From: an uncultured Pseudobdellovibrionaceae bacterium
GTDB lineage: Bacteria; Bdellovibrionota; Bdellovibrionia; Bdellovibrionales; JAGQZY01
Assembly (NCBI GenBank): GCA_964579625.1
Contig: CAZOGU010000001.1
Span: forward strand, 8,572 to 72,571
DNA length: 64,000 nucleotides
Direction: 5' to 3'
Below are positions 2,896 through 51,418 of the stretch, one piece after another. How positions within the stretch are numbered: the first letter of the stretch is position 1; the number at the start of each line of letters is the position of its first letter. Both the position numbers and the translations under genes were made by a program. The notes beneath the pieces are model-generated. The model had not been told where the DNA came from. It saw only the letters and a list, made by a program, of their open reading frames with translations, and made no database searches.

Positions 2896-3351
2896 CTATT
2901 TTTTAAGATTGGCTTTTTCGATGATTTTGGTCGTTGATTTGCCATCGATAAAGGTCAGTGAGCACACTTGGCCGCCATAGCTTTGCACAAAATGGCCGCC
3001 GACGATTTGGTCCACGGACCAATCGCCGCCTTTGACTAAAATATCTGGCTTGATTTGCTCAATCAAATTTTGTGGAGTGTCTTCACGAAAAATAACAGTC
3101 TCATCCACCGATTTTAGCGACTTTAAAATCTCGGCCCGATCTTGTTGATTTTGAATCGGGCGCGTGGGTCCTTTGAGTCGTTTGACGCTGTCATCAGAGT
3201 TTACACCGATGATGAGAAAGTCACCCAGCTTTTTGGCTTCTGAAAGATAGCGAACATGCCCCACATGCAACAGATCAAAACAACCATTGGTAAATACAAT
3301 TTTCTTTTTTTGGGACCGTAGGTTTTGCAGCTGAGCCAACAACTCTTTCAT
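2896..3351 (-). CDS. rfaE2: D-glycero-beta-D-manno-heptose 1-phosphate adenylyltransferase (RfaE domain II type cytidylyltransferase)
   Basis: Nucleotidyltransferase motif FTNGCFDLLHVGHVRYL and a size of about 150 aa. Confidence 0.75.
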   Translation of the reverse strand: MKELLAQLQNLRSQKKKIVFTNGCFDLLHVGHVRYLSEAKKLGDFLIIGVNSDDSVKRLKGPTRPIQNQQDRAEILKSLKSVDETVIFREDTPQNLIEQIKPDILVKGGDWSVDQIVGGHFVQSYGGQVCSLTFIDGKSTTKIIEKANLKK

Positions 3352-6847: not shown

Positions 6848-7504
6848 TTACTTCTTCTTTTTAGGAGTCGACTTTTTCTTGGAACTAAGCTTCTTTTCAA
6901 CACTCGCTAGTTGGCGTGTATTTTGAGCTTGCGGTTTTGTATCCATTTTTAAGTTGGATAGAGTCTCTAGATGTCGCTCCCCTTCCTTCATAAGACTTTT
7001 TGCTTTATCGGAACGGTTGAGTAAAGCGATTTTTTCCCCTTCAAGGGCAGCAGATGGTGCCATAAGAGCATTGACGTCAGGCGCGAGGGGTATTGATGGT
7101 TGCCTAAGAGAGCTTAAATCCAAACGATCTCCCACCATCACAGCATCGTAATCCAAAACGGCTCGGTTCTCAGGATTTTCGGATGACACAAGTTTGGCAA
7201 CGCTTAAGTACTCATCACCTTGAACGATTTCAAGCTCTCCCACCTTCACGCGGAGATCACCCACAGAAATATTTTTGATCGGATCATGCATCGGTAAACG
7301 ACGAAGAACATCGACAACCGTGCCTTTAGTAAGACCAAGCTTCCCGCCGCCATTGATAAAAAAGTTTTTGTAAACCTTGTCGTTTTTCGAAAGCGCAATA
7401 TTTTTTCGCACTTCAATGACAACAGCTTCTTTTTCAGCAGCCTGAACTTGCACCTCTAATCCTGAGAAGAGAAAGAACAGCAAAGGTAAATTGATCTTCT
7501 TCAT
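6848..7504 (-). CDS. hypothetical secreted protein
   Basis: Signal peptide MKKINLPLLFFLFSGLEVQVQA and a Lys-rich C-terminal tail. The RBS region is AACAAGGAUGGUUUAUG. Confidence 0.5.
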   Translation of the reverse strand: MKKINLPLLFFLFSGLEVQVQAAEKEAVVIEVRKNIALSKNDKVYKNFFINGGGKLGLTKGTVVDVLRRLPMHDPIKNISVGDLRVKVGELEIVQGDEYLSVAKLVSSENPENRAVLDYDAVMVGDRLDLSSLRQPSIPLAPDVNALMAPSAALEGEKIALLNRSDKAKSLMKEGERHLETLSNLKMDTKPQAQNTRQLASVEKKLSSKKKSTPKKKK

Positions 7505-7597
7505 AAACCATCCTTGTTACTAAGCTTATCGGCTCAAAATGAGATGGTTTTAACTGGACCAAGAGCTAGAAAAGTCTGGAGCTTTAAGTAGGACTAC

Positions 7598-7737
7598 TAT
7601 TCAGTCGGTAGCAGCATCGGCATCAGATACGGTTTCAGTTCAGTTTTTAGTAACCGAAAGAATAGCTAACTCATTGCAAACAGAAAACAGGACTGAAACT
7701 GTATCTGATGCCGATGCTGCTGCTTATTAGCTGAATG
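7598..7737 (+). other. long imperfect inverted repeat, about 140 nt; candidate structured RNA or extragenic palindromic element
   Basis: Positions 7611-7648 pair with 7683-7720, which is 38 positions with one mismatch. The pairs 7631/7700, 7640/7691 and 7648/7683 are G:U only when read on the plus strand. An outer stem pairs 7599-7604 with 7731-7736. The loop is 34 nt. Confidence 0.35.
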
Positions 7738-7747
7738 GACTTAACTA

Positions 7748-8605
7748 TTATTTAGCAACAAACCTTTTCATTTCCTTCACTTTTTGACAGCCAGCGGGGT
7801 TGCGATGCTCACAGGCCTTTTCGTAGATGCTGAGGCGTTCGTAAAAACTCCAGACTGATGCGTTCTTTAGTTTTTCGTCTGCAAACATGTCTTGCGCATT
7901 TTGTGCCATTTGAACATGGAGAGGTAAACTTCCGTCGATCGGAAAAATCATTCGCTCTCTATTTGTTTGTGATGGAGGAAACTCCTGACTCATCGAAAAA
8001 TAGAAGCGCAAATCCAATGTTTTGATTGCAGGTAGTTTTTCTGACAAAAACGGCTTTTGCAAAGCTTCGATCAAGAAAAGAAGAACCCAACCCTGCAACT
8101 CCCGTGGGCCCGTCATCGATTCTTCAAAAATGCGCAAAAGCTCTCCCCTTCGTCCCAAGCGAACACGCACCTGAACGACACCTTGAATGCGTTCGCGAAT
8201 ATGTTCGGGCCGATACGAAGCATGGGCGCGGATCTGACGCCAGATTCTAGGCAGCAAACGATCATTGTCGATTGTTTTTTGCAAATCGATCACCGTATCG
8301 CCTGACGAAACTTCGATGTCTTGAATGGACTCACCACTCGATTTTTTTTGCCCGTAGACCTCGCGGGCCATGTCTCCAAAACTGCTGTGTAAAAGTTTGG
8401 AAAGATGGCCGTTTTTTTTAATTGTTTTGCGATGGGATTTTTTGGAATTCTGTTGTGGTTCAGCAGATGTATTGCTCGCTGCCCATTCGATAAAAAGTGG
8501 TTCCCTGACCTCTGCGATGGGAGTGTTTTGCTTTTTTAGAAACACGTACAGTGTGAGATGTATAAAAAGAGAGAGAATAATTCCAAAACAAACAAAGCGA
8601 TTCAT
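7748..8605 (-). CDS. TonB-like energy transducer family protein
   Basis: A single N-terminal TM (FGIILSLFIHLTLYVFL), a linker, and a C-terminal region (...IQGVVQVRVRLGRRGELL...) resembling the TonB C-terminal fold. Confidence 0.4.
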   Translation of the reverse strand: MNRFVCFGIILSLFIHLTLYVFLKKQNTPIAEVREPLFIEWAASNTSAEPQQNSKKSHRKTIKKNGHLSKLLHSSFGDMAREVYGQKKSSGESIQDIEVSSGDTVIDLQKTIDNDRLLPRIWRQIRAHASYRPEHIRERIQGVVQVRVRLGRRGELLRIFEESMTGPRELQGWVLLFLIEALQKPFLSEKLPAIKTLDLRFYFSMSQEFPPSQTNRERMIFPIDGSLPLHVQMAQNAQDMFADEKLKNASVWSFYERLSIYEKACEHRNPAGCQKVKEMKRFVAK

Positions 8606-10381: not shown

Positions 10382-10403
10382 AAAAGGGACTTGGTCCCTT
10401 TTT
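10382..10403 (-). terminator. hairpin overlapping the fliW stop (AAAGGGAC-CAA-GUCCCUUU)
   Basis: Perfect 8-9 bp stem with flanking A/T runs on both sides. The downstream U content on the minus strand is only moderate. Confidence 0.45.
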
Positions 10404-10926
10404 AGATGGTCTTGTCGGCGCCCGGAAGTTTTACGGCTACGCCAGAATCAACGGCTTTGCTCTTGATCGCGCTTGGACTGTTTTGTACCACGCGCTGTTG
10501 AAGGCGCGTGAAGATGGGCTCGCGGATTTCCAGTTTGTTGTCCTGAAGCACGCACTGACGACCCATTTTTTGCGCGATGTTGATGATGATCGGCGCTTTT
10601 AAATTGGCCGTCATCATGGTTGGGTCTTCGGGAATCGTAATAATGCAAAATGAGCGAAGGCCTGTTTTGTCTTCGACATTTAAAGATTTAAGATCGCTCT
10701 TTGTTAATGTCAGCTGAAAGGTGTCTGAGAAAAGTTCGGGCTCTAGTATTGGAAAGGCAATGCTTGGTTCGTCGCAACTTTGTAGCCAGGCAAAGATTTC
10801 GTCGCTTGGATCATCCAGTAACACAAAACGATCTAGATCTGAAAAACCCAGCAATCCTTCTGGGAAGTGGAGGACGTCGTCCTCACCAACAGTGATATTT
10901 CCAAAACGCGAAGTTTGGATCTGCAT
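10402..10926 (-). CDS. fliW: flagellar assembly factor FliW (CsrA antagonist)
   Basis: MQIQTSRFGNITVGEDDVLHFPEGLLGFSDLDRFVLLDDP...FAWLQS is typical of FliW. GGAGGGGGAAAUG marks the start at 10926. The track start at 10992 lacks an RBS. Confidence 0.85.
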   Translation of the reverse strand: MQIQTSRFGNITVGEDDVLHFPEGLLGFSDLDRFVLLDDPSDEIFAWLQSCDEPSIAFPILEPELFSDTFQLTLTKSDLKSLNVEDKTGLRSFCIITIPEDPTMMTANLKAPIIINIAQKMGRQCVLQDNKLEIREPIFTRLQQRVVQNSPSAIKSKAVDSGVAVKLPGADKTI

Positions 10927-11126
10927 TTCCCCCTCCAAAAACAACCAACAGCTCCCCAGGATAAACTCCGGTGCCTCCCATGGAGACAACACAAAGCGCC
11001 GAACGGTTAACCAAATAGTAGTCGTTCCAGTGAAAATAATTCAAGGATTTTCTTTAGGGAGAGAAGGTTGGAGACAGGATTTCGACAACACGCGCAAAGA
11101 ATTGAGGCCTTAGATCCGCCTCCGTC

Positions 11127-11360
11127 TTACTGGGGATCTTTGAGCATCTTTGCGACGTCTTTGGCTTTGTCGGAGGTCGTCGAAATGGACTGCTTGTTTT
11201 GCTCCTGAATCGACAAATAGACTTCTTCGCGATGGATTTTAGTGTCTTTTGGGGCTTCAATTCCCAAGCGAACTTGCTTGCCCTTGATTTGAACGACACG
11301 AATTTTGATGTGATCGTCGATTGCGATACTTTCGCCAATTTTTCTTGTGAGAACTAACAT
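11127..11360 (-). CDS. csrA: carbon storage regulator CsrA (FliW-partnered type with C-terminal extension)
   Basis: MLVLTRKIGESIAIDDHIKIRVVQIKGKQVRLGIEAPKDTKIHREEVY is near-canonical CsrA. Confidence 0.95.
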   Translation of the reverse strand: MLVLTRKIGESIAIDDHIKIRVVQIKGKQVRLGIEAPKDTKIHREEVYLSIQEQNKQSISTTSDKAKDVAKMLKDPQ

Positions 11361-11450
11361 AAAGCTCCTTCAACATCCTGGTCAAAGCTCAGCTTGCGTA
11401 ATGATTTACGCTTCTGCCCAGTAATAAACCGAGTGTCTTTGCTATTATCA

Positions 11451-12476
11451 CTACCTCAGAAAGTCAAGGAGTGTTGTCTTGAGCATTTTTCCGGATGTGG
11501 AAAGAGAGGCCTCAAGTTGCGTTTGCGTTTTGGTTAAATTATTCACCAAGTCGTACATATCAACGTCTTCGATTTCAGACTGGATGACCTTCGAGTCGAC
11601 ATGCAATTTTTGTAAAGTTTCCAAACCGGTGTTGAGCGAAGACACTCGCGAGCCCAACTCACCGCGTGCCATATTCACTTGCGATATTGCGGAATCTAAA
11701 TATTCCAAAGAGTTTTGCACAACAGATTTATCATTGGCGCGCAAACCGACTTCGAGGTCCCGTAGGGCTTCAAAGATGTTTACGGACTGCGGCCCCCAAG
11801 CTCCTTGAGTGCTGTTGGTGATTGTTTGTGACGTTGGAGACAGGGGATCTTGCGAACTTGGGCCGCGCAACTCCGCCTTGGTTTTATCGTCCTGAATGGT
11901 TTCCTGAACTGGCAAAGGCTGATGAAGTTTTTTGCCCATAAACACAACGCTGCCTGGAAGGTTGGTTGTGATGAAGGCATCTTTTTCGATTTGCACTTCG
12001 ATTTCGGCGTCGTCGCCAAAATAGGTGCCCGTCATATCAAATGGTGTCGTCAGACTCTTGTAACCGCCAAAAAGAAAGCGATCGCCAAAGCGACGATTGG
12101 CAATGTTCACCATTTGCTCGTAAATCTGACGAACTTCTCCAGCCACGATTCGACGAGACTCCGCACCATTGGCAGAATCATCCGCCTGATCAATTGCAAG
12201 TTCCTTGGCGCGAATTAAAAGTTCACTGGCTTGCGAAAGGGACTGCTCGGAGTATTCCACAAACTCTTTGGCTGATAAAATATTTCGTTTGTACTGTTCA
12301 AACCCTTGCATCTCGGTTTTCTTTTCCAAAATGCGAGCGGCTCCGAGCGGATCATCGGATGGTTTGTTAATGCGCTTTTGCGAAGCGGCCTGGTTTTGGT
12401 AAACCATCATATCCTGACGATTTTTATTAATCGCATTCAATGATTGATTGTAATTCATTTTATCAGCAACACGCAT
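11451..12476 (-). CDS. flgL: flagellar hook-associated protein 3 FlgL
   Basis: Flagellin-like N-terminus (MRVADKMNYNQSL...QKRINKPSDDP) and C-terminus. Located directly after flgK. Confidence 0.8.
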   Translation of the reverse strand: MRVADKMNYNQSLNAINKNRQDMMVYQNQAASQKRINKPSDDPLGAARILEKKTEMQGFEQYKRNILSAKEFVEYSEQSLSQASELLIRAKELAIDQADDSANGAESRRIVAGEVRQIYEQMVNIANRRFGDRFLFGGYKSLTTPFDMTGTYFGDDAEIEVQIEKDAFITTNLPGSVVFMGKKLHQPLPVQETIQDDKTKAELRGPSSQDPLSPTSQTITNSTQGAWGPQSVNIFEALRDLEVGLRANDKSVVQNSLEYLDSAISQVNMARGELGSRVSSLNTGLETLQKLHVDSKVIQSEIEDVDMYDLVNNLTKTQTQLEASLSTSGKMLKTTLLDFLR

Positions 12477-12478
12477 TC

Positions 12479-13909
12479 TTAGTATCTCCGAATATTAATC
12501 ACTGTATCGAGCATTTCGTCCGCCGTGCGAATCAACCGCGCCGAGGCATCAAATTGTTTTTGCCATTCGATCATACTCGCGATCTCTTCATCGATATTGA
12601 CGCCGCTATAGCTTTCGCGAAGATTTTCGAGTTGTCGAACAACGCCCTCTTGCGACTCGAGCATATTGTTCACTTTTTGTGTGCGCAATCCGAGCTCTGC
12701 CACCATTCCATTGTAAAACTCATCAACAGAGGTCGCGCCATCGAGCATTGATTTGCTATATTGCAGCTCTCCGATTTGATTGGAAATGCGATTGTCGCCT
12801 GGACTGTTTGGATCCATTCCCGCAACGATCCGGCCCACATCTCCCATGACAGTGGGATTGATTTTAATCAGCCCCGCGGTTCCTCGTTGTTGATCGGTAT
12901 GCGCGAAGAAGTCATCACCGGGTTGATTGTAGGCATTGTAACCTTGACGATGAAGATCATTCACGCGATTACCGACCTCAAAAGCAAGCATGTCCACTTT
13001 TCTTTCGAACTCCGCGACATCGCCATCACGAACCGACAGCAATCCACCGAGTTTTCCACCCTTGATGCGATCGGTGAGAATCATCGGCTCTGCGTACTCA
13101 TGGTGATAGTATTGAATATCATAATCGCCTTCGGCTTTGTTTTCGGTGGCTGGCGTTGGAACCGCTTCCAAGCGGCGGGCTTCGTTGCCGATGACGAGAA
13201 TGGCATTTTCCGCTGTGCTGATTGTCACCGTGGAATCTTTTCCCTCGGCCCATTTGATATCAACCACTTCGCCCAATTGTTTAAGGAGGGCATCTCGGCG
13301 GTCGCGCTCGTCGTTGGCAAAACCACCGCCGATTTCGACTTTTTGAACCTGCATATTGAGTGATGCAATCTCTTGAGTCATCGAGTTGATTTCATTCACC
13401 TGAATATGCACCTGTCCGTTGGCTTCTTTACGAATGTCTTCGAGCTGCTCACTGACACGATTAAAATCACGAGTTAAAAGATCCGCACTCTCTTTGACGG
13501 CCAAGCGTTTAGCCATGTTTTCTGGATTTGTTGAGAGTTCGCGAAATGAGTTAAAAAATTTGCCGATAGAACTATTGAGTCCTTCGACTTGTTGTTCGTT
13601 GTAGACTTGTTCTAAACGCATCAACGCTGTGCTTTGCCCGTTCAAAAAACCCAATTGCGATTTTTCGCCGGCCAGTTGCTTTTCGAGATACGGATTGTTG
13701 ACTCGCTGAATACTTGCAGCACGCGCGCCGGTTCCCACGCGCATTTTTCCGGCGCCGTTTGGAAAGTTACTAAACGTCTCTGTCTTTTGGCGACTGTAGC
13801 CTTCGGTGTTTTTATTGGCAATGTTGTGAGAAACCGTATGGAGCGCCGCCTGGCTATTCATCATAGCCCGCTGACCTACATTCATCGAGGTTCCAATACG
13901 TGTCGACAT
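12479..13909 (-). CDS. flgK: flagellar hook-associated protein 1 FlgK
   Basis: N-terminus ...QAALHTVSHNIANKNTEGYSRQ and C-terminus ...ARLIRTADEMLDTVINIRR, both typical of FlgK. Confidence 0.9.
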   Translation of the reverse strand: MSTRIGTSMNVGQRAMMNSQAALHTVSHNIANKNTEGYSRQKTETFSNFPNGAGKMRVGTGARAASIQRVNNPYLEKQLAGEKSQLGFLNGQSTALMRLEQVYNEQQVEGLNSSIGKFFNSFRELSTNPENMAKRLAVKESADLLTRDFNRVSEQLEDIRKEANGQVHIQVNEINSMTQEIASLNMQVQKVEIGGGFANDERDRRDALLKQLGEVVDIKWAEGKDSTVTISTAENAILVIGNEARRLEAVPTPATENKAEGDYDIQYYHHEYAEPMILTDRIKGGKLGGLLSVRDGDVAEFERKVDMLAFEVGNRVNDLHRQGYNAYNQPGDDFFAHTDQQRGTAGLIKINPTVMGDVGRIVAGMDPNSPGDNRISNQIGELQYSKSMLDGATSVDEFYNGMVAELGLRTQKVNNMLESQEGVVRQLENLRESYSGVNIDEEIASMIEWQKQFDASARLIRTADEMLDTVINIRRY

Positions 13910-13932
13910 CCTGTCCTTTCGCGAAGTCCCTC

Positions 13933-14442
13933 TTAGACTTCTTTACTCACCAGTCGTCCCGATGTTTCCATCGAGCTCTCACTGCGCTTGCCTTTCTTCT
14001 CATAGTTCGATTTTTTATTAAGCGTATCGGTAAAGGCCTGCATCGCTCCTGCAATGTGGGACAGCGCCGACGTGGCCAACTGATCATTGTGTTTATTAAG
14101 AGTCGCTGTACGTTGAATCAGCAAATTCAACACCGTTCGAAAGCGCAAAAGCTTTTCTCTTTGCGGTCCACTGTAGGCTTGCGCAATGTCGGCTAAACGC
14201 GGAGTTTCTGACGGGAGAGAAAAAAAGCTTTGCATCTCAACCGCTACATTCATCCACTGAATTTCAAGTTCATTGATTTTTTTGAGCATCAACTCTTTGG
14301 CTTGGTTGATCTCACCGAGCACTTGCAGGTCGGCGTGAATCAATACCGCTTTTTCCCGACGAACGGTTTCAAACAGCAGACGGTAGACACGCACCAGCTG
14401 ATTGAGATTTTTTTCGAGATCTAAAAAAAGTTGCTGCTTCAT
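13933..14442 (-). CDS. flgN: FlgN-like flagellar export chaperone
   Basis: Helical protein of about 165 aa between flgM and flgK with an FlgN-like N-terminal pattern. Confidence 0.55.
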   Translation of the reverse strand: MKQQLFLDLEKNLNQLVRVYRLLFETVRREKAVLIHADLQVLGEINQAKELMLKKINELEIQWMNVAVEMQSFFSLPSETPRLADIAQAYSGPQREKLLRFRTVLNLLIQRTATLNKHNDQLATSALSHIAGAMQAFTDTLNKKSNYEKKGKRSESSMETSGRLVSKEV

Positions 14443-14450
14443 TTAGTTCC

Positions 14451-14762
14451 TTACGACGGCAGTAAAAGGTGTTCGTTCACAAGTTTATCGGCAACCGCTT
14501 CGGCGTCGACTTTGTATTCGCCAGAATCAATCATCTTTTGCAAGCGAGCCACTTTGGCCTCATCGACAGAATCTTGCGAAGCCAACTCTTTGGCTTTGCT
14601 GATTTGTCGTGCTTGTGTTGATAAATTAATTTTTGTGGCGTCCATCATTTCGGAAGGAGACACCGATGAGGCTTTGCCTCTTTTAATCCCTGGGTCTTTT
14701 GCTAAATCGCTGATGGCGCGATCATTCATGAGCCCCTGAGTTGCTTTATTATTTACTTTCAT
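14451..14762 (-). CDS. flgM: anti-sigma-28 factor FlgM
   Basis: C-terminus ...AKVARLQKMIDSGEYKVDAEAVADKL is typical of FlgM. AAGGAGGA lies 5 nt before ATG 14762. The track start at 14765 is GTG. Confidence 0.8.
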   Translation of the reverse strand: MKVNNKATQGLMNDRAISDLAKDPGIKRGKASSVSPSEMMDATKINLSTQARQISKAKELASQDSVDEAKVARLQKMIDSGEYKVDAEAVADKLVNEHLLLPS

Positions 14763-14840
14763 CACATCCTCCTTGATGACATCCCTTTTATTGTATCACA
14801 ATGAGACGTCAATTATGCGAAAACCCGACCGGTCGAGAGT

Positions 14841-15170
14841 CTATTTTTCTGTCTTTTTAGGAGGAACTGGACTCGCCACATAACGACTGTGCTGACTGGG
14901 TATTAGCTTTTCTTTCAGTTCCTTGTAAATCTTGTCTGCAAGGCCGTTCCCGCCATTGTCGACCCATTTTTCGGCGTACTGATTGTACAGTTCATCCTGG
15001 TAAATTTTTTCAGCCATAGAAGGTTCTGTCACGCGGCTGTGTTCCACCGTTTTTTTCATCGCATTGATCATCTCTTGTAAGAACTGCTGTTCGTACATCT
15101 TGGCCGCTTTTTGCAGCTGCTGATCGAGCGTTGGTGGTGTGTGTTGAGGTTTTACATTTTTAATATTCAT
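14841..15170 (-). CDS. flgJ: flagellar rod-binding protein (FlgJ N-terminal domain only, no muramidase domain)
   Basis: Rod-binding motif ...YEQQFLQEMINAMKKT...GGNGLADKIYKEL. Only 109 aa long. Confidence 0.75.
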   Translation of the reverse strand: MNIKNVKPQHTPPTLDQQLQKAAKMYEQQFLQEMINAMKKTVEHSRVTEPSMAEKIYQDELYNQYAEKWVDNGGNGLADKIYKELKEKLIPSQHSRYVASPVPPKKTEK

Positions 15171-15350
15171 AAAAAAAACAGGGGGTCAGAGTTAGACGTG
15201 CGTCCATGCACATACAGCCTTTACTAAAAGATCACGATCCATCCTTGGTTCAATGACCCGTCCCAGCCGCTCTTCTGCTCAAGAGAAACCATCCGTGGTT
15301 AATACTCTAACTCCTCTTCTCCCCCCCTGGAGCCTGCGCTCCAATTCCAA
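15171..15350 (-). ncRNA. candidate CsrA-binding structured RNA or leader in the flgI-flgJ spacer
   Basis: Read on the minus strand, the spacer has 9 GGA triplets. Three sit in hairpin loops (15287-15300, 15239-15248, 15196-15213). A long-range closing stem (15307-15329 with 15179-15195) is followed by U8 at 15171-15178. Confidence 0.4.
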
Positions 15351-15384
15351 GTCTATAGCCAATTGTGTCATTTCGAAACACTTT

Positions 15385-16569
15385 TCAAAGGATTTCCAGC
15401 TCTCCTTGTAAAGCCCCAGAAGCCTTGATGTTTTGTAAAATGACAATCAGGTCTTTTGGAGAGACGCCCATTTGATTCAAACTTTGGACGAGCTCGCCAA
15501 CACTCACTGACTCTTGTAGTAACTTTACGTTTTGATCTTTTTTAGGTCCACTATTGTTTGCCGCGATCGAAGCCGGTGCACGCATCGGCACACTTTCCAT
15601 AGGCGGAGCCATTTCGGGCGCGATGGTGGGTGCGGGAGCGGGAACAACCGTCGGCGGTGTTGGTGTTTCCGCAGGAGTGGGCATCGCCTCTGGAGCAGAT
15701 ACCGCGGCCACCGGTGCAGGTGCCGGCGCCGGTTTTGCACCCACCTTCAGGTTGATATCACCATGACTGATCGCTACAGTACTGATGCGAACATTTTCTC
15801 CGATGATCACAGTTCCTGTTTTTTCGTTGATAACGACTTTGGCTTTTTGATCCGGCTCCACATTGAGGGATTCGATCGTTGCTAAAAGTTCGATTCCTTT
15901 TCCTTCGTAGGAAAATGGCACCACCACATCGATCGTTGCAGGATCCATCGCTGTTGCATACTTTCCGCCAAGATCCATGTTGACCGTCTGTGCGATCCGC
16001 ACGGCCGTTGTGATATCTGGATTGTGCAATGTCAGGCGATACATTTTACGATTGGTAAAGTTTTCTTGCAGAACATCTTTTTCGATAATGGCGCCACCGG
16101 AGATTTTACCGGCTGTCGAATGAACTGTTTTTCCAGATGTGCGACCAATGGAGATCGCTCCCTGTGCCACCGCGTAGACATTTTGATCAGACGCGCGAAG
16201 CGGCGACTGTACAAGTGTGCCGTTTTCGAGGCTTGAGGCATCGCCGATGGAGTTAACAGTGATATCCATCTTGTTTCCCGCTCGAGCAAAAGCGGGAAGC
16301 GTGGCAGTGATTAACACAGCTGCGACATTCTTTTTGGCCACTTCGCCGTCGTCGACTTTGATTCCTAATTTTTCGAGCATACGGGCCATACTTTTATTGG
16401 TGAATTCACTTTTACTATCGCCCGTTCCTTTGAGACCAACCACTAAACCGTAACCAATCAACTGGTTGTCACGAACACCGCGAACGTTGGCAATGTCTTT
16501 CAGACGAACAGCATGTGCATTCGATGCAAAAAAGAAAATCGTTAAAAAGACTCTCCCAAGATAAATCAT
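15385..16569 (-). CDS. flgI: flagellar P-ring protein FlgI
   Basis: N-terminus ...RLKDIANVRGVRDNQLIGYGLVVGL.GTGD and C-terminus ...DLIVILQNIKASGALQGELEIL, both typical of FlgI. It contains an unusual Pro/Ala-rich segment. Confidence 0.9.
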   Translation of the reverse strand: MIYLGRVFLTIFFFASNAHAVRLKDIANVRGVRDNQLIGYGLVVGLKGTGDSKSEFTNKSMARMLEKLGIKVDDGEVAKKNVAAVLITATLPAFARAGNKMDITVNSIGDASSLENGTLVQSPLRASDQNVYAVAQGAISIGRTSGKTVHSTAGKISGGAIIEKDVLQENFTNRKMYRLTLHNPDITTAVRIAQTVNMDLGGKYATAMDPATIDVVVPFSYEGKGIELLATIESLNVEPDQKAKVVINEKTGTVIIGENVRISTVAISHGDINLKVGAKPAPAPAPVAAVSAPEAMPTPAETPTPPTVVPAPAPTIAPEMAPPMESVPMRAPASIAANNSGPKKDQNVKLLQESVSVGELVQSLNQMGVSPKDLIVILQNIKASGALQGELEIL

Positions 16570-17387
16570 AAAGCCTCACTCTTCTTATCGCTGATAATAT
16601 CAAACACCGGATCGATAAGAGCTTCTGCACTCATGCCCTTTTCGTTGTATTCTTCGGATCGAATCGTTCCCATAACTAATAGTTTGTATTCGCGTTTGCC
16701 AATCATAAAAGGCTGCTCACCCTTGACTCGATAGTTTCCATCTTTTTGAATTTCAACAATTCGTGTGGAGACAGAGCGAATCGGGAACTCTTTGTTTTTT
16801 GCAAGGCCCTTAATCTCTTCTTCTTCGTCGCCAATTTTTTTAAGAACTTTATCTTGCTCTTTCATTTGCTGTTCGGGAGTTGGTCCCTCTGGTTTTTCTT
16901 CTTCCTCGGGTCCTATTCCAAACAAAGAGGCGAGTCCGCGAGATTCTGCTTTTTCAGTGTCCTGCTGCTCTTTGTACTCTGGGGTCATTTGTTTTTTGAG
17001 TTCTTCTTGTTTGAGTTTAATATCTTGCTTTTGTTCATTGAGAATTTCCGAAAGAAGTTTAGCAATCGTATTCACCTTGGTTTGAACTTGCTCTTTAGGA
17101 TAGCCTTCGAGCTTGATCTCTAGAAGGTCACCAAGAAGACGTTGGTTGTTGTTAGCAAAAAGAAAAGACGATTGGCCGCGGCTCACCCAGAGAGAACCGC
17201 TTTGTTCATAGAGCATTGATTCTTCTTCCATGCTTCGACGAGTGGTGCGCCGTGCTTCGGGCTCCGCTTTCTTTTCTTCTTTAACGGGTGGAACCACCTC
17301 GTTATGACGACGAAAAAGATCTGCAAGTGTTGAACAGCCCACAAAACTCATCAGAACAAAAAGAGAAAAAACAATCTGCTTCATCAC
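16566..17387 (-). CDS. flgH: flagellar L-ring lipoprotein FlgH
   Basis: Lipobox ...SFVGC, the motif SLWVSRGQSSFLFANNNQRLLGDLLEIKL, and an FlgH-type C-terminal region. It carries a Lys/Glu-rich insertion. Confidence 0.85.
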   Translation of the reverse strand: MMKQIVFSLFVLMSFVGCSTLADLFRRHNEVVPPVKEEKKAEPEARRTTRRSMEEESMLYEQSGSLWVSRGQSSFLFANNNQRLLGDLLEIKLEGYPKEQVQTKVNTIAKLLSEILNEQKQDIKLKQEELKKQMTPEYKEQQDTEKAESRGLASLFGIGPEEEEKPEGPTPEQQMKEQDKVLKKIGDEEEEIKGLAKNKEFPIRSVSTRIVEIQKDGNYRVKGEQPFMIGKREYKLLVMGTIRSEEYNEKGMSAEALIDPVFDIISDKKSEAL

Positions 17388-18316
17388 AACCTCACTCGAG
17401 AATCACCCACAATAACCGCGGTGATCTGCTTTTGCGTTTTATGAATGCGAATGGGAATCCGCTCCCCGAGTTTTCCTCCTCGTTGGGCCGTTCCGCTCAT
17501 TTCGACAAAAATGGATCCATTTTGAATTTCTACAGCCACCGATTCGCCCAGCTTTACGCTTTGACGATCGACCAAATCATCCATGGTCAATAGCTGTGCA
17601 TTGTTGAGAGAACGTTTAAGTTCTTTTCCGAGAAGGTCCTTAACATCCGCAAAGGATCTTTGTTCGTTGGTGACATCGCGGAGCTGAACCACAAAGTCGC
17701 TTGCCTGTGCGATGTGCCCCTTCATCAGTGCTTTTTGAATCACAAGTACAGGACGCTGTACGCGAACCCATGTTTGCAATATGAGCGGATTTAACACTTG
17801 GTCATCAAAATAAACCCGCAACATCACTGCTCCGCGAAGATCCCGTAGATCGTGCTGGAGATCCCAGTGTGAAAACGTGCTAGGCACTTGTCCTCTGAGA
17901 ACATTCAGATTGGAAAGTTGAAACGTGCAAGATGGGCAGGTTTTTTGCAAACGCTGTACGATCTCTTCTTGCACAATGGGTAACGAAAATGTTTCGGCTT
18001 TTTGTTCTTCTTTTGGACTGCGTGCAAAAATGAGCTGCACACGACAATCACACTCGTGTTCGTAAACTGTCGTTTGCTGGCGAATTTTACGAATCAGATC
18101 CACTTTTGAGAGCTTGCGATAGTCTTCGGGGTGAAGAGCTAAAATCAATTCACCCAGCTCGATGACTTGCGTTGCTGGTAGACCCTTGATCTCTGCCACA
18201 TCACGCAAATACACAACGCTTCCTTCGTGCCACTGCGGGAGCGCACGAAAATGAATCGTCGGATCTGCCGACGAGCAAGAAATTAAAAAAGAAAATACAA
18301 ACTGAAAAAGAATCAT
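17384..18316 (-). CDS. flgA: flagellar P-ring assembly chaperone FlgA
   Basis: C-terminal SAF-type domain ...VKLGESVAVEIQNGSIFVEMSGTAQRGGKLGERIPIRI.... Located between flgG and flgH. Confidence 0.8.
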   Translation of the reverse strand: MILFQFVFSFLISCSSADPTIHFRALPQWHEGSVVYLRDVAEIKGLPATQVIELGELILALHPEDYRKLSKVDLIRKIRQQTTVYEHECDCRVQLIFARSPKEEQKAETFSLPIVQEEIVQRLQKTCPSCTFQLSNLNVLRGQVPSTFSHWDLQHDLRDLRGAVMLRVYFDDQVLNPLILQTWVRVQRPVLVIQKALMKGHIAQASDFVVQLRDVTNEQRSFADVKDLLGKELKRSLNNAQLLTMDDLVDRQSVKLGESVAVEIQNGSIFVEMSGTAQRGGKLGERIPIRIHKTQKQITAVIVGDSRVRL

Positions 18317-18322
18317 ACCTTC

Positions 18323-19108
18323 CTATCTAATATGCGTTAAGGCCTGTAACATTTGATCGCTGGCCTGAATGACTTTGGAGTTGGTTTCATAAGCTCTTTG
18401 CGTGGTGATCATGTTCACCATTTCTTCGACGATGTTGACGTTACTGGTTTCGAGTTCGCGCTGACCAATGGCTCCATAAGGACCTTGTCCTGGATTTCCA
18501 ACGGCAGCATCACCGCTTGCTGAAGTGGCTAAAAACAAATTGCCACCAATCGCTTTAAGACCCGTAGGATTTACAAACGTCGCTAATTCAATCTGCCCAA
18601 TCACCTGTGGAACTTCGGATCCAGTTGTCAGAACCGAAACTTCACCCTGTGGGTTGATGATGACATCCGCGGCATCATTGGGAAGAACGATCTCTGGCTG
18701 AAGCGTATTTCCGTTAAAATCCACAATGCGTCCGTCAGCCGAGCGATGAAGTTCGCCGTTACGACCGTAGGCCATTGAGCCATCAGGACGCAAAAACTGA
18801 AGGAAACCTTTTCCATTGATGGCCACATCCAATTCACGATTGGTCGTCTGTAACGATCCGAGTGAAAAATCTTTTTGTGTGGCGCCGGTTTTGACTCCCA
18901 ATCCCACTTGCACGCCGGTTGGCGACACGGCATTCAGTCCTGTCGCCGCTCCTGGCTCCTTGATGTTTTGATAGAGAAGATCTTCGAACTCTGCTCTCGT
19001 TTTCTTAAAGCCTGTCGTCGATGTGTTGGCAATGTTGTTGGCGATCGTATCCATATTGGTCTGTTGCGCCTGCATCCCTGTGGCTGCCGTATGCAATGAC
19101 TTAATCAT
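18323..19108 (-). CDS. flgG: flagellar distal rod protein FlgG
   Basis: N-terminus MIKSLHTAATGMQAQQTNMDTIANNIANTSTTGFK and C-terminus ...SNVNIVEEMVNMITTQRAYETNSKVI. Confidence 0.9.
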   Translation of the reverse strand: MIKSLHTAATGMQAQQTNMDTIANNIANTSTTGFKKTRAEFEDLLYQNIKEPGAATGLNAVSPTGVQVGLGVKTGATQKDFSLGSLQTTNRELDVAINGKGFLQFLRPDGSMAYGRNGELHRSADGRIVDFNGNTLQPEIVLPNDAADVIINPQGEVSVLTTGSEVPQVIGQIELATFVNPTGLKAIGGNLFLATSASGDAAVGNPGQGPYGAIGQRELETSNVNIVEEMVNMITTQRAYETNSKVIQASDQMLQALTHIR

Positions 19109-19131: not shown

Positions 19132-19950
19132 TTATCTGAGCTTGGTTACGTCGTTCACTAACTTCGAATTCATTTGATCATAAGCTTGAATGGCTTTTTG
19201 TGTGGTTTCGAAAACGCGCGATGTTTTAATCAAGTCCGTCATTTCACTGACCAGATTGACATTGCTCTTTTCGATAGACCCTTGATGCAATTTAAATTGT
19301 GTGGCTTGTTTGAGTGGACTGTTGATGGTTTCGCGAAGCTTATAAAAAGAATTTCCTTCTTTTTGAAAAACATCTTTGTCTTGCGCGGTGACCATTGAGA
19401 GTTGTCCGACAAATTGTTCACCCACTTTAAGATGTCCCTGATTGGAAACGCTAAAGCTGGGCTCGTTACCGATGCGCACAAAGCGAGACTCGAGAGCCTG
19501 ATTGGGTTGTTGCTCTTGCATTAAAATGGGATAGCCCTGTTTAGTGACCAGTTCACCGTTTTGATTCATGGTGAACCCACCATTGCGGGTCCAGCGAATT
19601 CCATTGGGAGTTAGCACTTCAAAAAAGCCATCGCCCTCTACGGCCACATCAAATGGATTGTTGGTCACAACCAAAGATCCTTGCGCAAAACTTGTCGATG
19701 TTCCCGCAGAATCCACGTAGCTTTTGTCGGCCCCGTTGACTGGGTAAAAACTATCTATGGTATCGGGAATTTTTATCGATGCTAAACCTTCTTGTTGTTT
19801 TTCGTAGCTCGTTAAATATTCGCGAAACACCTGTTCGTCGCGTTTAAAGGCGGGCGTGTCGGCGTTGGCGATGTTGTTGGCAATGGTGTCCATCTTATCG
19901 GACTGGGCCATGGCTCCACTGACTGCTGTGTAAATACCTTTCATACTCAT
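19132..19950 (-). CDS. flgF: flagellar proximal rod protein FlgF
   Basis: Rod-protein N- and C-terminal motifs (...MDTIANNIANADTPAFKRD; ...SNVNLVSEMTDLIKTSRVFETTQKAI). Located upstream of flgG. Confidence 0.75.
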   Translation of the reverse strand: MSMKGIYTAVSGAMAQSDKMDTIANNIANADTPAFKRDEQVFREYLTSYEKQQEGLASIKIPDTIDSFYPVNGADKSYVDSAGTSTSFAQGSLVVTNNPFDVAVEGDGFFEVLTPNGIRWTRNGGFTMNQNGELVTKQGYPILMQEQQPNQALESRFVRIGNEPSFSVSNQGHLKVGEQFVGQLSMVTAQDKDVFQKEGNSFYKLRETINSPLKQATQFKLHQGSIEKSNVNLVSEMTDLIKTSRVFETTQKAIQAYDQMNSKLVNDVTKLR

Positions 19951-20111: not shown

Positions 20112-21029
20112 ATGTTGTTGTTTGTTGATTTACTGATTTCTTTTGCCTTGGCCATCCCCAATCCCGCCGCCCAACCACCAGTCGTGACCGGCGGGGAATC
20201 TCTCACGCAAGCGGCCTCGGACAGCTCTGATCAAGCCCCCATTTTTGATATTCCAATGACCTACAATCATCGCGTGCAGTTTTGGATTCGTCATTTTCAG
20301 ACGAGTGGTCGCAAGGATTTTCAGAAGTGGCTTGCGCGCTCGACACGTTACTCACCATTTATTTTAAAAGAGCTCGAAAAATCGGGTTTGCCAAAAGATA
20401 TCATTTACACGGCGATGGTTGAGAGTGGATTTTCTCCATCGGTGCAAAGCCCGGCGGCGGCCATGGGGCTTTGGCAGTTTATCAAACCCACGGCCGAACG
20501 TTATGGACTCACTGTAAACTGGTGGCTTGATGAGCGAAGAAATTTTGTGAAGAGCACCGCCGCAGCGATCAAGTACAAAAAAGATCTCTATGCGATGTTT
20601 GGCTCGTGGTATTTGGTGTCTGCTAGCTACAACTGTGGCGAACGAAAAATTGTGAACTTGATTAAAAAATATGGCACGAATAATTTTTGGGAAATGGCGC
20701 AACTGGGAGTTTTACCAAGAGAGACTGCCGACTATGTTCCAAAGATTCTTGCCGCCACGATGATTGCAAAAGCTCCAGGCCTCTATGGTTTTCGCAACAT
20801 TGATTACTCGGTTCCTTACGAGTTCGACATGGCTCCGGTTCCAGGCGGAACGGATCTTTACAATCTTGCGCAGTATCTTGGTGTGAATGCCAACTATCTT
20901 AAAGAACTCAATCCCGATTTGATTCATGGATTTATTCCGCCAGCGATTCCGTTTCACACCATCAAGGTGCCAAAGGGATCGGCCAAACTCGTCGCTCAGT
21001 ATAGCGACAAACTCACTCGACAATTGTAA
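20112..21029 (+). CDS. lytic transglycosylase (SLT domain) with C-terminal LysM-like domain
   Basis: Catalytic region ...MVESGFSPSVQSPAAAMGLWQF.... LysM-like segment ...TDLYNLAQYLGVNANYLKELNP.... Confidence 0.75.
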   Translation: MLLFVDLLISFALAIPNPAAQPPVVTGGESLTQAASDSSDQAPIFDIPMTYNHRVQFWIRHFQTSGRKDFQKWLARSTRYSPFILKELEKSGLPKDIIYTAMVESGFSPSVQSPAAAMGLWQFIKPTAERYGLTVNWWLDERRNFVKSTAAAIKYKKDLYAMFGSWYLVSASYNCGERKIVNLIKKYGTNNFWEMAQLGVLPRETADYVPKILAATMIAKAPGLYGFRNIDYSVPYEFDMAPVPGGTDLYNLAQYLGVNANYLKELNPDLIHGFIPPAIPFHTIKVPKGSAKLVAQYSDKLTRQL

Positions 21030-50434: not shown

Positions 50435-51418
50435 ATGAAATTCATAGTATTCACAATGACTACACTCATTTCACTTAATACTTTTGCCGCACTTGTAATG
50501 TATACAGATCGTCCTGCCGCGACGACACAGATTATCGCCTCTGCTTTTAAAGCAAAAACGGGCGCTGATCTTGATATCATCGAAATGAAAAGTTCCGATC
50601 TCGTCAATCGTCTCAATGCCGAAGGCGCTCAGTCGAATGGTGCCGATGTTATCTTTGTAAGAGATTTAGTTTATCTTAACGAAATCAATGCTGGCGGATT
50701 TTTTCAACCCTACAACAGCGCGGCATCTCAAAAAGTAAATGGAGTGATGAAAACAAAAAACTGGGTGGGCGTGACCTATCGTGCACGTACTGTTGTTTAC
50801 AACACTCTTTCCGTGAACCCTGCTACTTTAAAAAACTATTCCGATCTTGCAAATCCTGAGTGGGCCGGAAGACTCTGCGTTCGCGTAGCGAACTCTTCGT
50901 ACAATCAAGCTTTGATTGCAAATTTAATTGCTAACGCTGGAGAGCAAAAAGCCACTTCGGTGATCGATGGATGGGTTCAAAATTTTGCCGTTAATCCCAT
51001 CGCAGATGACACTGCTGTTCTTAAGGCCATCGCGGATGGAACGTGCGCTGTAGGCGTTGTTAATACATACTACTTAGGACGCTATCTTTCCTCCGACCCA
51101 CAAGCTCCGCTCGGCGTTGTTTTTGTTGGTGAAGGTGGACAAGGAACTCACACCAATGGCTCGGGCATCGGTATTTCTTTGGCCTCTGAACAACAAGCTC
51201 TGGCCAACCAGTTGATTGAGGTCATGCTTTCTCCTGATGTTCAAAAACAAATTGTTGGATCCACTTTCGAATTCCCGGCAAACACAACTGTCGCTCACCC
51301 GAATAAGACTGTTGGTTCTTGGATGGGTTTTAAAATCAACGGCACAAGCTGGAGCCAATTGACACCAGACCTGATTGAGGAAAGTACAAATCTCATGAAG
51401 AGTGTTGGTTACAAATAG
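50435..51418 (+). CDS. periplasmic Fe3+-type ABC substrate-binding protein (FbpA/AfuA-like)
   Basis: Signal peptide, ...LVMYTDRPAA...FKAKTGADLDII..., and ...GADVIFVRD...GGFFQPY, typical of iron(III) binding proteins. Confidence 0.6.
   Translation: MKFIVFTMTTLISLNTFAALVMYTDRPAATTQIIASAFKAKTGADLDIIEMKSSDLVNRLNAEGAQSNGADVIFVRDLVYLNEINAGGFFQPYNSAASQKVNGVMKTKNWVGVTYRARTVVYNTLSVNPATLKNYSDLANPEWAGRLCVRVANSSYNQALIANLIANAGEQKATSVIDGWVQNFAVNPIADDTAVLKAIADGTCAVGVVNTYYLGRYLSSDPQAPLGVVFVGEGGQGTHTNGSGIGISLASEQQALANQLIEVMLSPDVQKQIVGSTFEFPANTTVAHPNKTVGSWMGFKINGTSWSQLTPDLIEESTNLMKSVGYK

Follow-up and report, generated by a model that had tools for sequence, protein, structure and literature searches.

What does the spacer between flgI and a flgJ-like gene encode in a flagellar cluster that also carries csrA and fliW? 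We analyzed this 214-nt spacer (15171–15384, minus strand) in a 64,000-nt stretch of DNA from an uncultured Pseudobdellovibrionaceae bacterium (GenBank assembly GCA_964579625.1, contig CAZOGU010000001.1); the whole stretch is referred to below as the window. A preliminary description had proposed here a GGA-rich, hairpin-studded RNA binding CsrA, either as a small RNA (sRNA) or as an intercistronic leader. The spacer encodes a real, conserved, and structured non-coding RNA. It almost certainly belongs to the APsRNA1 family of sRNAs, of which a transcript was reported in Bdellovibrio bacteriovorus HD100, and with moderate confidence we propose from its sequence that it acts as an antagonist or decoy of CsrA.

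A conserved structured RNA downstream of flgI

The RNA was placed at 15171–15351 on the minus strand, with a length of approximately 175–188 nt, a 5′ end predicted at 15358–15345, and a 3′ end in a run of eight uridines (U8, 15178–15171). The z-score of the fold was −2.45 for the trimmed RNA and only −1.45 for the entire spacer. Hairpin P0 (UUGGAGC-GCAG-GCUCCAG, 15327–15344), supported by the predicted fold and by covariation, lies at the 5′ side, outside the closing helix P1. The 5′ strand of P1 (15307–15326) consists of GGGGGG, an AGAAGA internal loop, and GGAGUUAG and pairs with 15180–15195: GGGGGG with CCCCCU (15326–15321 with 15185–15180) and GGAGUUAG with CUAACUCU (15314–15307 with 15195–15188). 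Enclosed by P1 are hairpin P2 (AACCA-CGGA-UGGUU, 15287–15300), containing CACGGAUG; hairpin P3 (CUCUU-GAGCAG-AAGAG, 15270–15285); the P4 domain (15215–15269); and hairpin P5 (AUGUGC-AUGGAC-GCACGU, 15196–15213), containing CAUGGACG. P3 and P4 were likewise defined by predicted fold and covariation. The P4 domain consists of outer (CGGCU/GGCUG) and middle (GGGUCAU/GUGAUCU) stems and an inner hairpin, GA-CCA-AGGA-UGG-UC (15251–15236), with CAAGGAUG at 15247–15240. The 3′ strand of P1, CUAACUCU-GA-CCCCCUG, followed by U8 (15171–15195), forms a terminator-like end of the RNA. All features listed in the preliminary description—three hairpins, a purine tract, a two-part stem, U8, and the flgJ ATG—were found at the coordinates given there. 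Folding of the spacer, suggested there as a check, placed the three GGA hairpins (15300–15287, 15248–15239, and 15213–15196) in the minimum-free-energy structure with a probability of about 1.0 that their GGAs are unpaired (0.99–1.0 for P2).

The loci used for comparison had 53–85% FlgI identity and came from genomes, metagenomes, and exact-protein look-ups; a metagenome scan with FlgI contributed only 3 loci, and further loci were obtained via the look-ups. The nearest FlgI relatives were found in metagenome-assembled genomes labelled Bdellovibrionales or Pseudobdellovibrionaceae. One copy of the RNA was present between flgI and the flgJ-like gene in every readable Bdellovibrionales locus; two loci are cut by contig ends. 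A covariance model built from the eight closest sequences, which represent the sub-group of the window (model R1), matched each locus exactly once, in every case after flgI, and the window once (15172–15344). In the closest relatives, the spacer had 84–85% nucleotide identity, whereas FlgI had 72–78% amino acid identity.

We distinguish sub-groups A, B, and C in the RNA family, and the RNA of the window belongs to A. The common plan comprises the 5′ hairpin P0, the G-rich/C-rich closing helix P1, usually followed by a U-run in the relatives, and the enclosed P2–P5. P2 is of the ACC-AGGAU-GGU type, and its loop is NGGA in every family member; the P3 loop GAGCAG often continues as GGA; P4 takes the form CCA-AGGA-UGG or GCC-AGGAU-GGC; and P5 is either GUGCA-GGA-UGCAC or has an AUGGAC loop.

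Within sub-group A, 96.1% of the cells were paired (38–48% in slid controls), and 10 pairs showed double changes (0–2 in the controls). Sub-group C had 91.7% of cells paired (controls 37–51%) and 18 pairs with double changes (controls 5–9); in neither of these two sub-groups was the observed percentage reached by any of 500 shuffles. Eleven compensatory pairs were found in sub-group B. For the whole family, 91.9% of cells were paired (controls 40–54%) and 34 of the 39 pairs carried double changes (controls 12–17), counts that lean towards the structure of the model because the alignment was fitted to it. The strongest family-wide covariation was in P0, with double changes in 9 of the 10 pairs. 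The P1 helix is present in all sub-groups, with compensatory changes. In P3, UU/AA is replaced by AC/GU while a GAGCAG or UCGCAG loop is kept, with GCAGGA in relatives. The outer and middle stems of P4 covary; its inner hairpin does not vary within sub-group A and has GCC-AGGAU-GGC as its counterpart in sub-group C. P5 has two pairs with double changes in sub-group A, and its sub-group C form, GUGCA-GGA-UGCAC, also covaries.

Unpaired GGA columns were the best conserved of all columns (93–99%), compared with 67–81% for other unpaired and 78–90% for paired columns; thus, both the covariation and the loop-GGA conservation that the preliminary description had proposed to look for in relatives were found. 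Individual hairpins are without GGA in parts of the family: P0 in sub-group A (its loop is ACAUGGAUGU in sub-groups B and C), P4 in sub-group B, and P5 in loci L008, L010, and L011. Such gain and loss between hairpins is the behaviour of redundant protein-binding sites, unlike that of a ligand pocket.

Orthology to APsRNA1 and the transcription unit

Eight attack-phase sRNAs were reported for B. bacteriovorus HD100 (Karunker et al. 2013, PMC3627812). One of them, APsRNA1 (499,375–499,581, plus strand, 207 nt), has no FliA promoter and was expressed at 50,451 reads per kilobase per million mapped reads (RPKM) in the attack phase and 3,181 RPKM in the growth phase (PMC3627812). It lies between flgI (Bd0535, 498,325–499,332) and flgJ (Bd0536, 499,642–500,349), whose attack/growth expression values were 15/9 and 7.7/41.5, respectively (PMC3627812, Table S1). 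In the attack phase of HD100, the level of APsRNA1 is therefore about 3,000–6,000 times that of flgI or flgJ. Start sites in HD100 were determined from 5′-end libraries prepared with and without tobacco acid pyrophosphatase (TAP(+)/TAP(−), PMC3627812), which identifies the 5′ end of APsRNA1 as primary.

APsRNA1 and the RNA of the window occupy the same flgI–flgJ spacer position on the same strand, and the APsRNA1 sequence published in Fig. S1 can be aligned with sub-group C over its whole length. We built a second covariance model, R2, from 10 sequences including the published HD100 APsRNA1. Its sole match in the 64 kb was at 15164–15352 on the minus strand (31.2 bits, E = 3.8e-8, model positions 1–213), and it also recovered all other loci of the family; R1 in turn matched sub-group C loci at E values from 1e-3 to 5e-7. 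A sequence-only hidden Markov model of the window's sub-group missed HD100 APsRNA1, and covariance models were needed. The match of R2 over all 213 positions identifies the RNA of the window as the ortholog of APsRNA1, and we regard its membership in this family as close to certain.

The two RNAs share helices P0–P5, including the closing helix P1, and are detected reciprocally by the covariance models, but have only about 56% nucleotide identity. HD100 APsRNA1 is a member of sub-group C; unlike the RNA of the window, it carries GGA in the loop of P0, its P4 region is longer, and flgJ follows at a distance of about 60 nt. APsRNA1 is the experimentally observed member of the family, whereas the RNA of the window is known here from its sequence. 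The 3′ end of the HD100 transcript falls at the homologous 3′ strand of P1, ...CUCCCCUUU. Among seven attack-phase sRNAs of HD100 (APsRNA6 left out), loop-GGA hairpins occurred only in APsRNA1 (4, with 0.5 expected). The original publication describes APsRNA1 solely as a transcript and gives it neither a structure family nor a function or a CsrA link (PMC3627812); in the literature searched, no paper besides Karunker et al. 2013 used the name APsRNA1 and none linked Bdellovibrio to a Csr-type sRNA. Of the two options of the preliminary description, the sRNA is thus upheld, the ortholog being a discrete and abundant primary transcript, and the leader is less likely because the ortholog has a TAP-dependent 5′ end and exceeds flgI and flgJ 3,000–6,000-fold.

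The 2004 annotation of HD100 used by Karunker et al. (PMC3627812, Table S1) leaves an empty 553-nt gap after flgL (504,103–504,657), where relatives have csrA. This gap may be the reason that no link between APsRNA1 and CsrA had been drawn. Bd0543, the HD100 gene that follows, annotated as a "putative transmembrane protein", was expressed at 3077 in the growth phase and 41 in the attack phase, the reverse of APsRNA1 (PMC3627812), and may be fliW.

A conserved promoter-like block precedes the RNA at 15352–15384 (minus strand), with GTGTTTCGAAATGACACAAT at 15381–15362 and the −10-like TATAGA at 15357–15352; an alternative extended −10 element is TGACACAAT (15370–15362), and these two candidate readings account for the range of the predicted 5′ end. 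About 33 nt long and situated upstream of P0, this block is conserved across sub-groups A, B, and C, with TATAAT or TAAAAT at the position of TATAGA in relatives. In loci L022 and L026, where the RNA and the flgI stop codon are about 190 nt apart, it stays beside the RNA. It includes the partly palindromic GTGTTTCGAAATGACAC and the conserved GTGTTTCGAA-TGA-ACA. A promoter search revealed no sigma-28 promoter upstream of the RNA, and neither a sigma-54 element nor a good sigma-70 −35 element was seen there by eye.

The 3′ end escaped a simple terminator scan owing to the approximately 130 nt enclosed by the stem. There is no local hairpin before U8, so P1 itself must be the terminator stem, in agreement with the 3′ end of the HD100 transcript.

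GGA loops and CsrA as the proposed partner

The preliminary description had counted 9 GGA triplets in the spacer, with about 3 expected. We located these nine at 15348, 15342, 15322, 15314, 15294, 15263, 15244, 15240, and 15205 (minus strand). The lower expectation stood at the genome scale, where the mean was 2.9 GGA per 214 nt and 9 or more occurred in 0.6% of segments of this length; the spacer also had the highest GGA density within the 64 kb. It did not stand in shuffled spacers, in which 5.0 (mononucleotide shuffles, P = 0.036) and 7.2 GGAs (dinucleotide shuffles, P = 0.22) were expected. The composition-matched expectation is higher because the spacer is rich in G and in purines, and the density proposed as a check did not reach significance in the dinucleotide comparison.

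What departs from chance is the display of GGA in loops and, above all, the conservation of the element among related genomes. The RNA of the window has 3 loop-GGA hairpins, compared with 0.71 in shuffles (P = 0.03), and the family has 88, compared with 17.3 ± 4.1. Helices of the predicted fold bury four of the nine GGAs of the spacer; the exposed ones are three in loops (unpaired probability of about 1), one in a junction, and one in the 5′ tail. CANGGANG, the recognition core of CsrA/RsmE, is carried by each of P2 (CACGGAUG), P4 (CAAGGAUG), and P5 (CAUGGACG), with the GGA fully unpaired. All three fall in a single 97-nt stretch of one strand, for which the expected number is about 0.02. Over the 64 kb, CANGGANG was not enriched (24 observed, 27.7 expected), and outside the cluster in the RNA it stands out only at a few ribosome-binding sites. 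The P0 loop of sub-groups B and C, ACAUGGAUGU, is close to RUACARGGAUGU, the consensus of CsrA obtained by systematic evolution of ligands by exponential enrichment (SELEX). The loop GGAs are spaced by 39–50 nt, a distance within reach of a bridging CsrA dimer.

The CsrA encoded in the window (11127–11360, minus strand), 3.8 kb downstream of the RNA, retains the RNA-binding residues and has a C-terminal extension with N55, typical of CsrAs partnered by FliW. FliW, the protein antagonist of CsrA, is encoded at 10402–10992 (minus strand, PF02623). The preliminary description had seen a structured RNA candidate inside a flagellar cluster with csrA and fliW, and this was borne out in that the RNA is conserved and covarying and the CsrA is of the FliW type. 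CsrA of B. bacteriovorus represses a hag reporter with a GGA hairpin (PMC13443453).

Candidate CsrA sites were also found in the window outside the RNA. The csrA leader (11361–11390, minus strand), UUGACCAGGAUGUUGAAGGAGCUUU-AUG, carries ACCAGGAUGU / ACCAGGAUGUUGAAGGAGCUUUAUG and two GGAs, one of them in the Shine–Dalgarno sequence, which suggests that CsrA regulates its own translation. The flgK start region (13909–13925, minus strand), GAAAGGACAGGAUG, has two GGAs, one directly before the start codon, and is another possible CsrA site. The 64 kb contain a single canonical sigma-28 promoter, TTAAA-N15-GCCGATAA (7527–7552, minus strand), located upstream of an open reading frame (ORF) at 6848–7504, which encodes a 218-aa product with a signal-peptide-like N-terminus and no Pfam family. 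The short leader of this ORF, UAACAAGGAUGGUUU-AUG (within 7505–7552), has CANGGANG as its Shine–Dalgarno sequence, near-identical to P2; judging from these elements, the ORF is likely a FliA-dependent gene repressible by CsrA.

We propose that the RNA is the product of an independent sRNA gene, which would be transcribed from its own promoter in the approximately 35 nt after the flgI stop codon into an RNA of about 175–190 nt. The loops of P2, P4, and P5 would serve as CsrA sites, and the conserved junction GGGA and the GGA of the 5′ tail may be additional ones; the RNA would bind the FliW-type CsrA encoded downstream as two to three dimers. Bound CsrA would be kept off mRNAs with GGA in their ribosome-binding sites, the expected targets being flagellin and other genes of the sigma-28 regulon. 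By analogy with the HD100 ortholog, the RNA would accumulate in the swimming attack phase, and flgJ mRNA would arise only from rare read-through of the RNA terminator. Sequestration of CsrA in vivo and its targets are what we infer from these motifs, and attack-phase timing in the organism of the window from the analogy.

Such a mode of action, sequestration of CsrA dimers, would be that of CsrB/CsrC and RsmX/Y/Z, which the RNA also resembles in having several (A)NGGA hairpin loops, in being an abundant non-coding RNA, and in ending with an intrinsic terminator. As in the Csr/Rsm type, several GGAs are in loops, and the loop motifs are under selection while the stems covary. RsmY and RsmZ have a number of sites close to the approximately 4–6 of the window RNA. 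It differs from CsrB and the Rsm RNAs in lacking sequence or model similarity to them, in using the helix that closes the whole RNA as terminator and not a separate 3′ hairpin, in the location of its gene in a flagellar operon, and in the CsrA of its host, which is FliW-partnered and C-terminally extended. The upstream block (GTGTTTCGAAATGACAC) is also unlike the GacA/UvrY box, which has the form TGTAAG-N6-CTTACA. The Rfam scan of the entire window at gathering scores gave no family, and that of the RNA region at E ≤ 10 gave only a chance PreQ1 match; the RNA is therefore not a member of CsrB/CsrC/Rsm by descent and is at most a functional analogue.

Several points weigh against a CsrA decoy. 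The raw GGA count of the spacer is not above dinucleotide-matched chance and is weak evidence; the cleanly exposed GGAs in the RNA of the window are only three; and the minimum-free-energy folds of L008, L010, and L011 contain a single loop GGA. A terminator stem enclosing about 130 nt is unusual, and the U-run after P1 is degenerate in L032 and L033. The position of the flgJ ATG at the U-run and its lack of a Shine–Dalgarno sequence suggest an at least partly cis-acting role. The RNA has no similarity to Csr/Rsm models, and its binding by CsrA is something we infer from the loop motifs. Finally, FliW-type systems are thought in reviews to operate without sRNAs: according to a 2020 Csr review, it "remains to be determined" whether in any species FliW and sRNAs jointly act on CsrA, and a 2026 paper describes FliW-type bacteria as being without such sRNAs.

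Alternative roles and the flagellar neighbourhood

The alternative that survives best, which we consider possible but rather unlikely, is a mainly cis-acting leader or attenuator of flgJ, in which P1 and U8 would set read-through and mask a start lacking a Shine–Dalgarno sequence, and CsrA or another factor bound to the loops would tune termination or translation; it is compatible with a sponge function. U8 adjoins the flgJ ATG at 15170, and in sub-groups A and B the ATG lies 0–20 nt after the U-run. As the preliminary description had noted, flgJ has no Shine–Dalgarno sequence; flgI, flgM, flgN, flgK, flgL, and csrA all have AAGGAG-type sites. The N-terminus of the FlgJ-like protein is kept from residue 1 among relatives. 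The junction of U8 and the ATG cannot accommodate a promoter, so flgJ must rely on read-through. After the flgJ stop codon (14766–14840, minus strand), a small GC hairpin and UUUU are followed by TGATACAAT, an extended −10-like motif before flgM; flgM thus appears to have its own promoter, and flgJ alone may depend on read-through of the sRNA terminator. In HD100, flgJ was at about 0.02% of the level of the RNA in the attack phase, and flgM was about 30 times above flgJ in the growth phase.

A leader function fits poorly with sub-group C, in which the RNA is fully conserved despite lying 100–250 nt before flgJ, sometimes with an ordinary Shine–Dalgarno sequence before that gene, and with the abundance of the ortholog, a primary transcript thousands-fold beyond the needs of a leader. 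The GGA nearest to the flgJ start is 35 nt upstream, in the P5 loop, and there is none within 30 nt, so that at flgJ no GGA covers a Shine–Dalgarno sequence or start codon as in leaders of the hag/flaA/flaB type. The leaders of B. subtilis hag and C. jejuni flaA share with the RNA of the window a FliW-type CsrA, a flagellar context, and GGA hairpins, and flaA mRNA has also been proposed to titrate CsrA (PMC4894983); however, they belong to translated mRNAs with the site over the Shine–Dalgarno sequence, whereas the RNA studied here is non-coding and terminated. A secondary cis role metering flgJ is plausible in sub-groups A and B; since sub-group C keeps the RNA at a distance from flgJ, metering is not the conserved core function.

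An attack-phase sRNA that acts by base pairing (Hfq-type) or otherwise independently of CsrA, its GGA loops being seeds or sites of another protein, appears improbable. The abundance and U-rich 3′ end of the RNA would suit such a role, which was proposed for attack-phase sRNAs generally (Karunker et al., PMC3627812), but the conserved single strands form one short motif repeated over three to five hairpins and no extended seed, and the stem nucleotides beside GGA also fit the CsrA consensus.

A riboswitch-like ligand sensor, in which stabilisation of P1 would cause termination before flgJ, is very unlikely. The multi-branch architecture with a closing helix abutting the U-run is of the required kind, and Bdellovibrio has another abundant riboswitch-containing RNA, merRNA, an attack-phase RNA proposed to soak up cyclic di-GMP (c-di-GMP; PMC3627812). 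It shares with the RNA of the window the organism group, the expression programme, and the logic of a sponge, but it carries a c-di-GMP riboswitch and has no excess of loop GGA. The absence of Rfam matches, the variation of the junctions by sub-group, including a rearranged P3/P4 region in sub-group B, and conservation in repeated loop motifs and not in a unique junction core argue against a ligand sensor.

That the spacer is purine-rich by chance or is a mis-annotated coding region, as the non-significant GGA count in dinucleotide shuffles and the ORFs placed over the RNA by public gene callers might suggest, is refuted by a spacer more conserved than FlgI itself, by compensatory changes together with indels of one to three bases, and by ORF calls inconsistent between genomes.

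Public gene calls overrun the RNA in L022 (8044–9147), L026 (8057–9319), L024 (8075–8389), and L031 (4093–4407), either as a 367–420-aa "Rod-binding" ORF, the N-terminal part of which lies on the RNA, or as a separate 104-aa ORF. Such calls are probably erroneous and obscure the RNA gene. A small protein was also considered and rejected: the ORF calls over the RNA differ among genomes, and substitutions and indels are helix-like.

The window has a G+C content of 44.6%, and its genes were assigned with Pfam. The minus strand carries two flgF/G-like genes (19132–19950 and 18323–19108), flgA (17384–18316), flgH (16566–17387), flgI, the P-ring protein gene and upstream neighbour of the RNA (15385–16569, PF02119), and, beyond the spacer, the flgJ-like gene (14841–15170, PF10135), encoding 109 aa with the rod-binding domain only, flgM (14451–14765), flgN (13933–14442), flgK (12479–13909), and flgL (11451–12476), followed by csrA and fliW. 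A gene for an SLT lytic transglycosylase is located at 20112–21029 on the plus strand, divergent from the flgF...flgI operon; the arrangement recurs in all related loci with sufficient flank (L022, L024, and L026). This neighbour fits a FlgJ having the rod-binding domain only and a separate peptidoglycan-cutting partner. An inverted repeat with 38-nt arms (7610–7647 / 7684–7721, 92% complementary, 36 nt apart) is placed between the ORF at 7748–8605, which has no Pfam family, and the sigma-28 promoter.

The statement in the preliminary description that FliW-type systems have no described multi-GGA RNA partner agrees with the reviews, except that the transcript itself had been described as APsRNA1 (Karunker et al. 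2013). What was known already is the transcript, in one relative; its place in a family with a common structure and its candidacy as a CsrA decoy alongside FliW are new. The RNA would define a new Rfam RNA family and correct public ORF calls that run through the RNA.

For the Bdellovibrionales, we put forward a scheme that we regard as evenly poised: one FliW-type CsrA would have two antagonists, FliW in flagellum assembly and an abundant sponge RNA, encoded within the flagellar cluster, in the attack phase, the sponge freeing the sigma-28 regulon while its terminator meters flgJ. If true, CsrA would here have its first RNA decoy alongside FliW, joint action of an sRNA and FliW on CsrA would be seen for the first time, and the RNA would be the first Csr-type sponge outside the Gammaproteobacteria to have arisen independently of CsrB and the Rsm RNAs. 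The question of joint FliW and sRNA action is testable in culturable B. bacteriovorus HD100, which has a mapped, highly expressed ortholog and a CsrA active on GGA hairpins. A decoy role would likewise assign a function to APsRNA1, which ranks among the most abundant attack-phase RNAs still unexplained in this predator, studied as a "living antibiotic".

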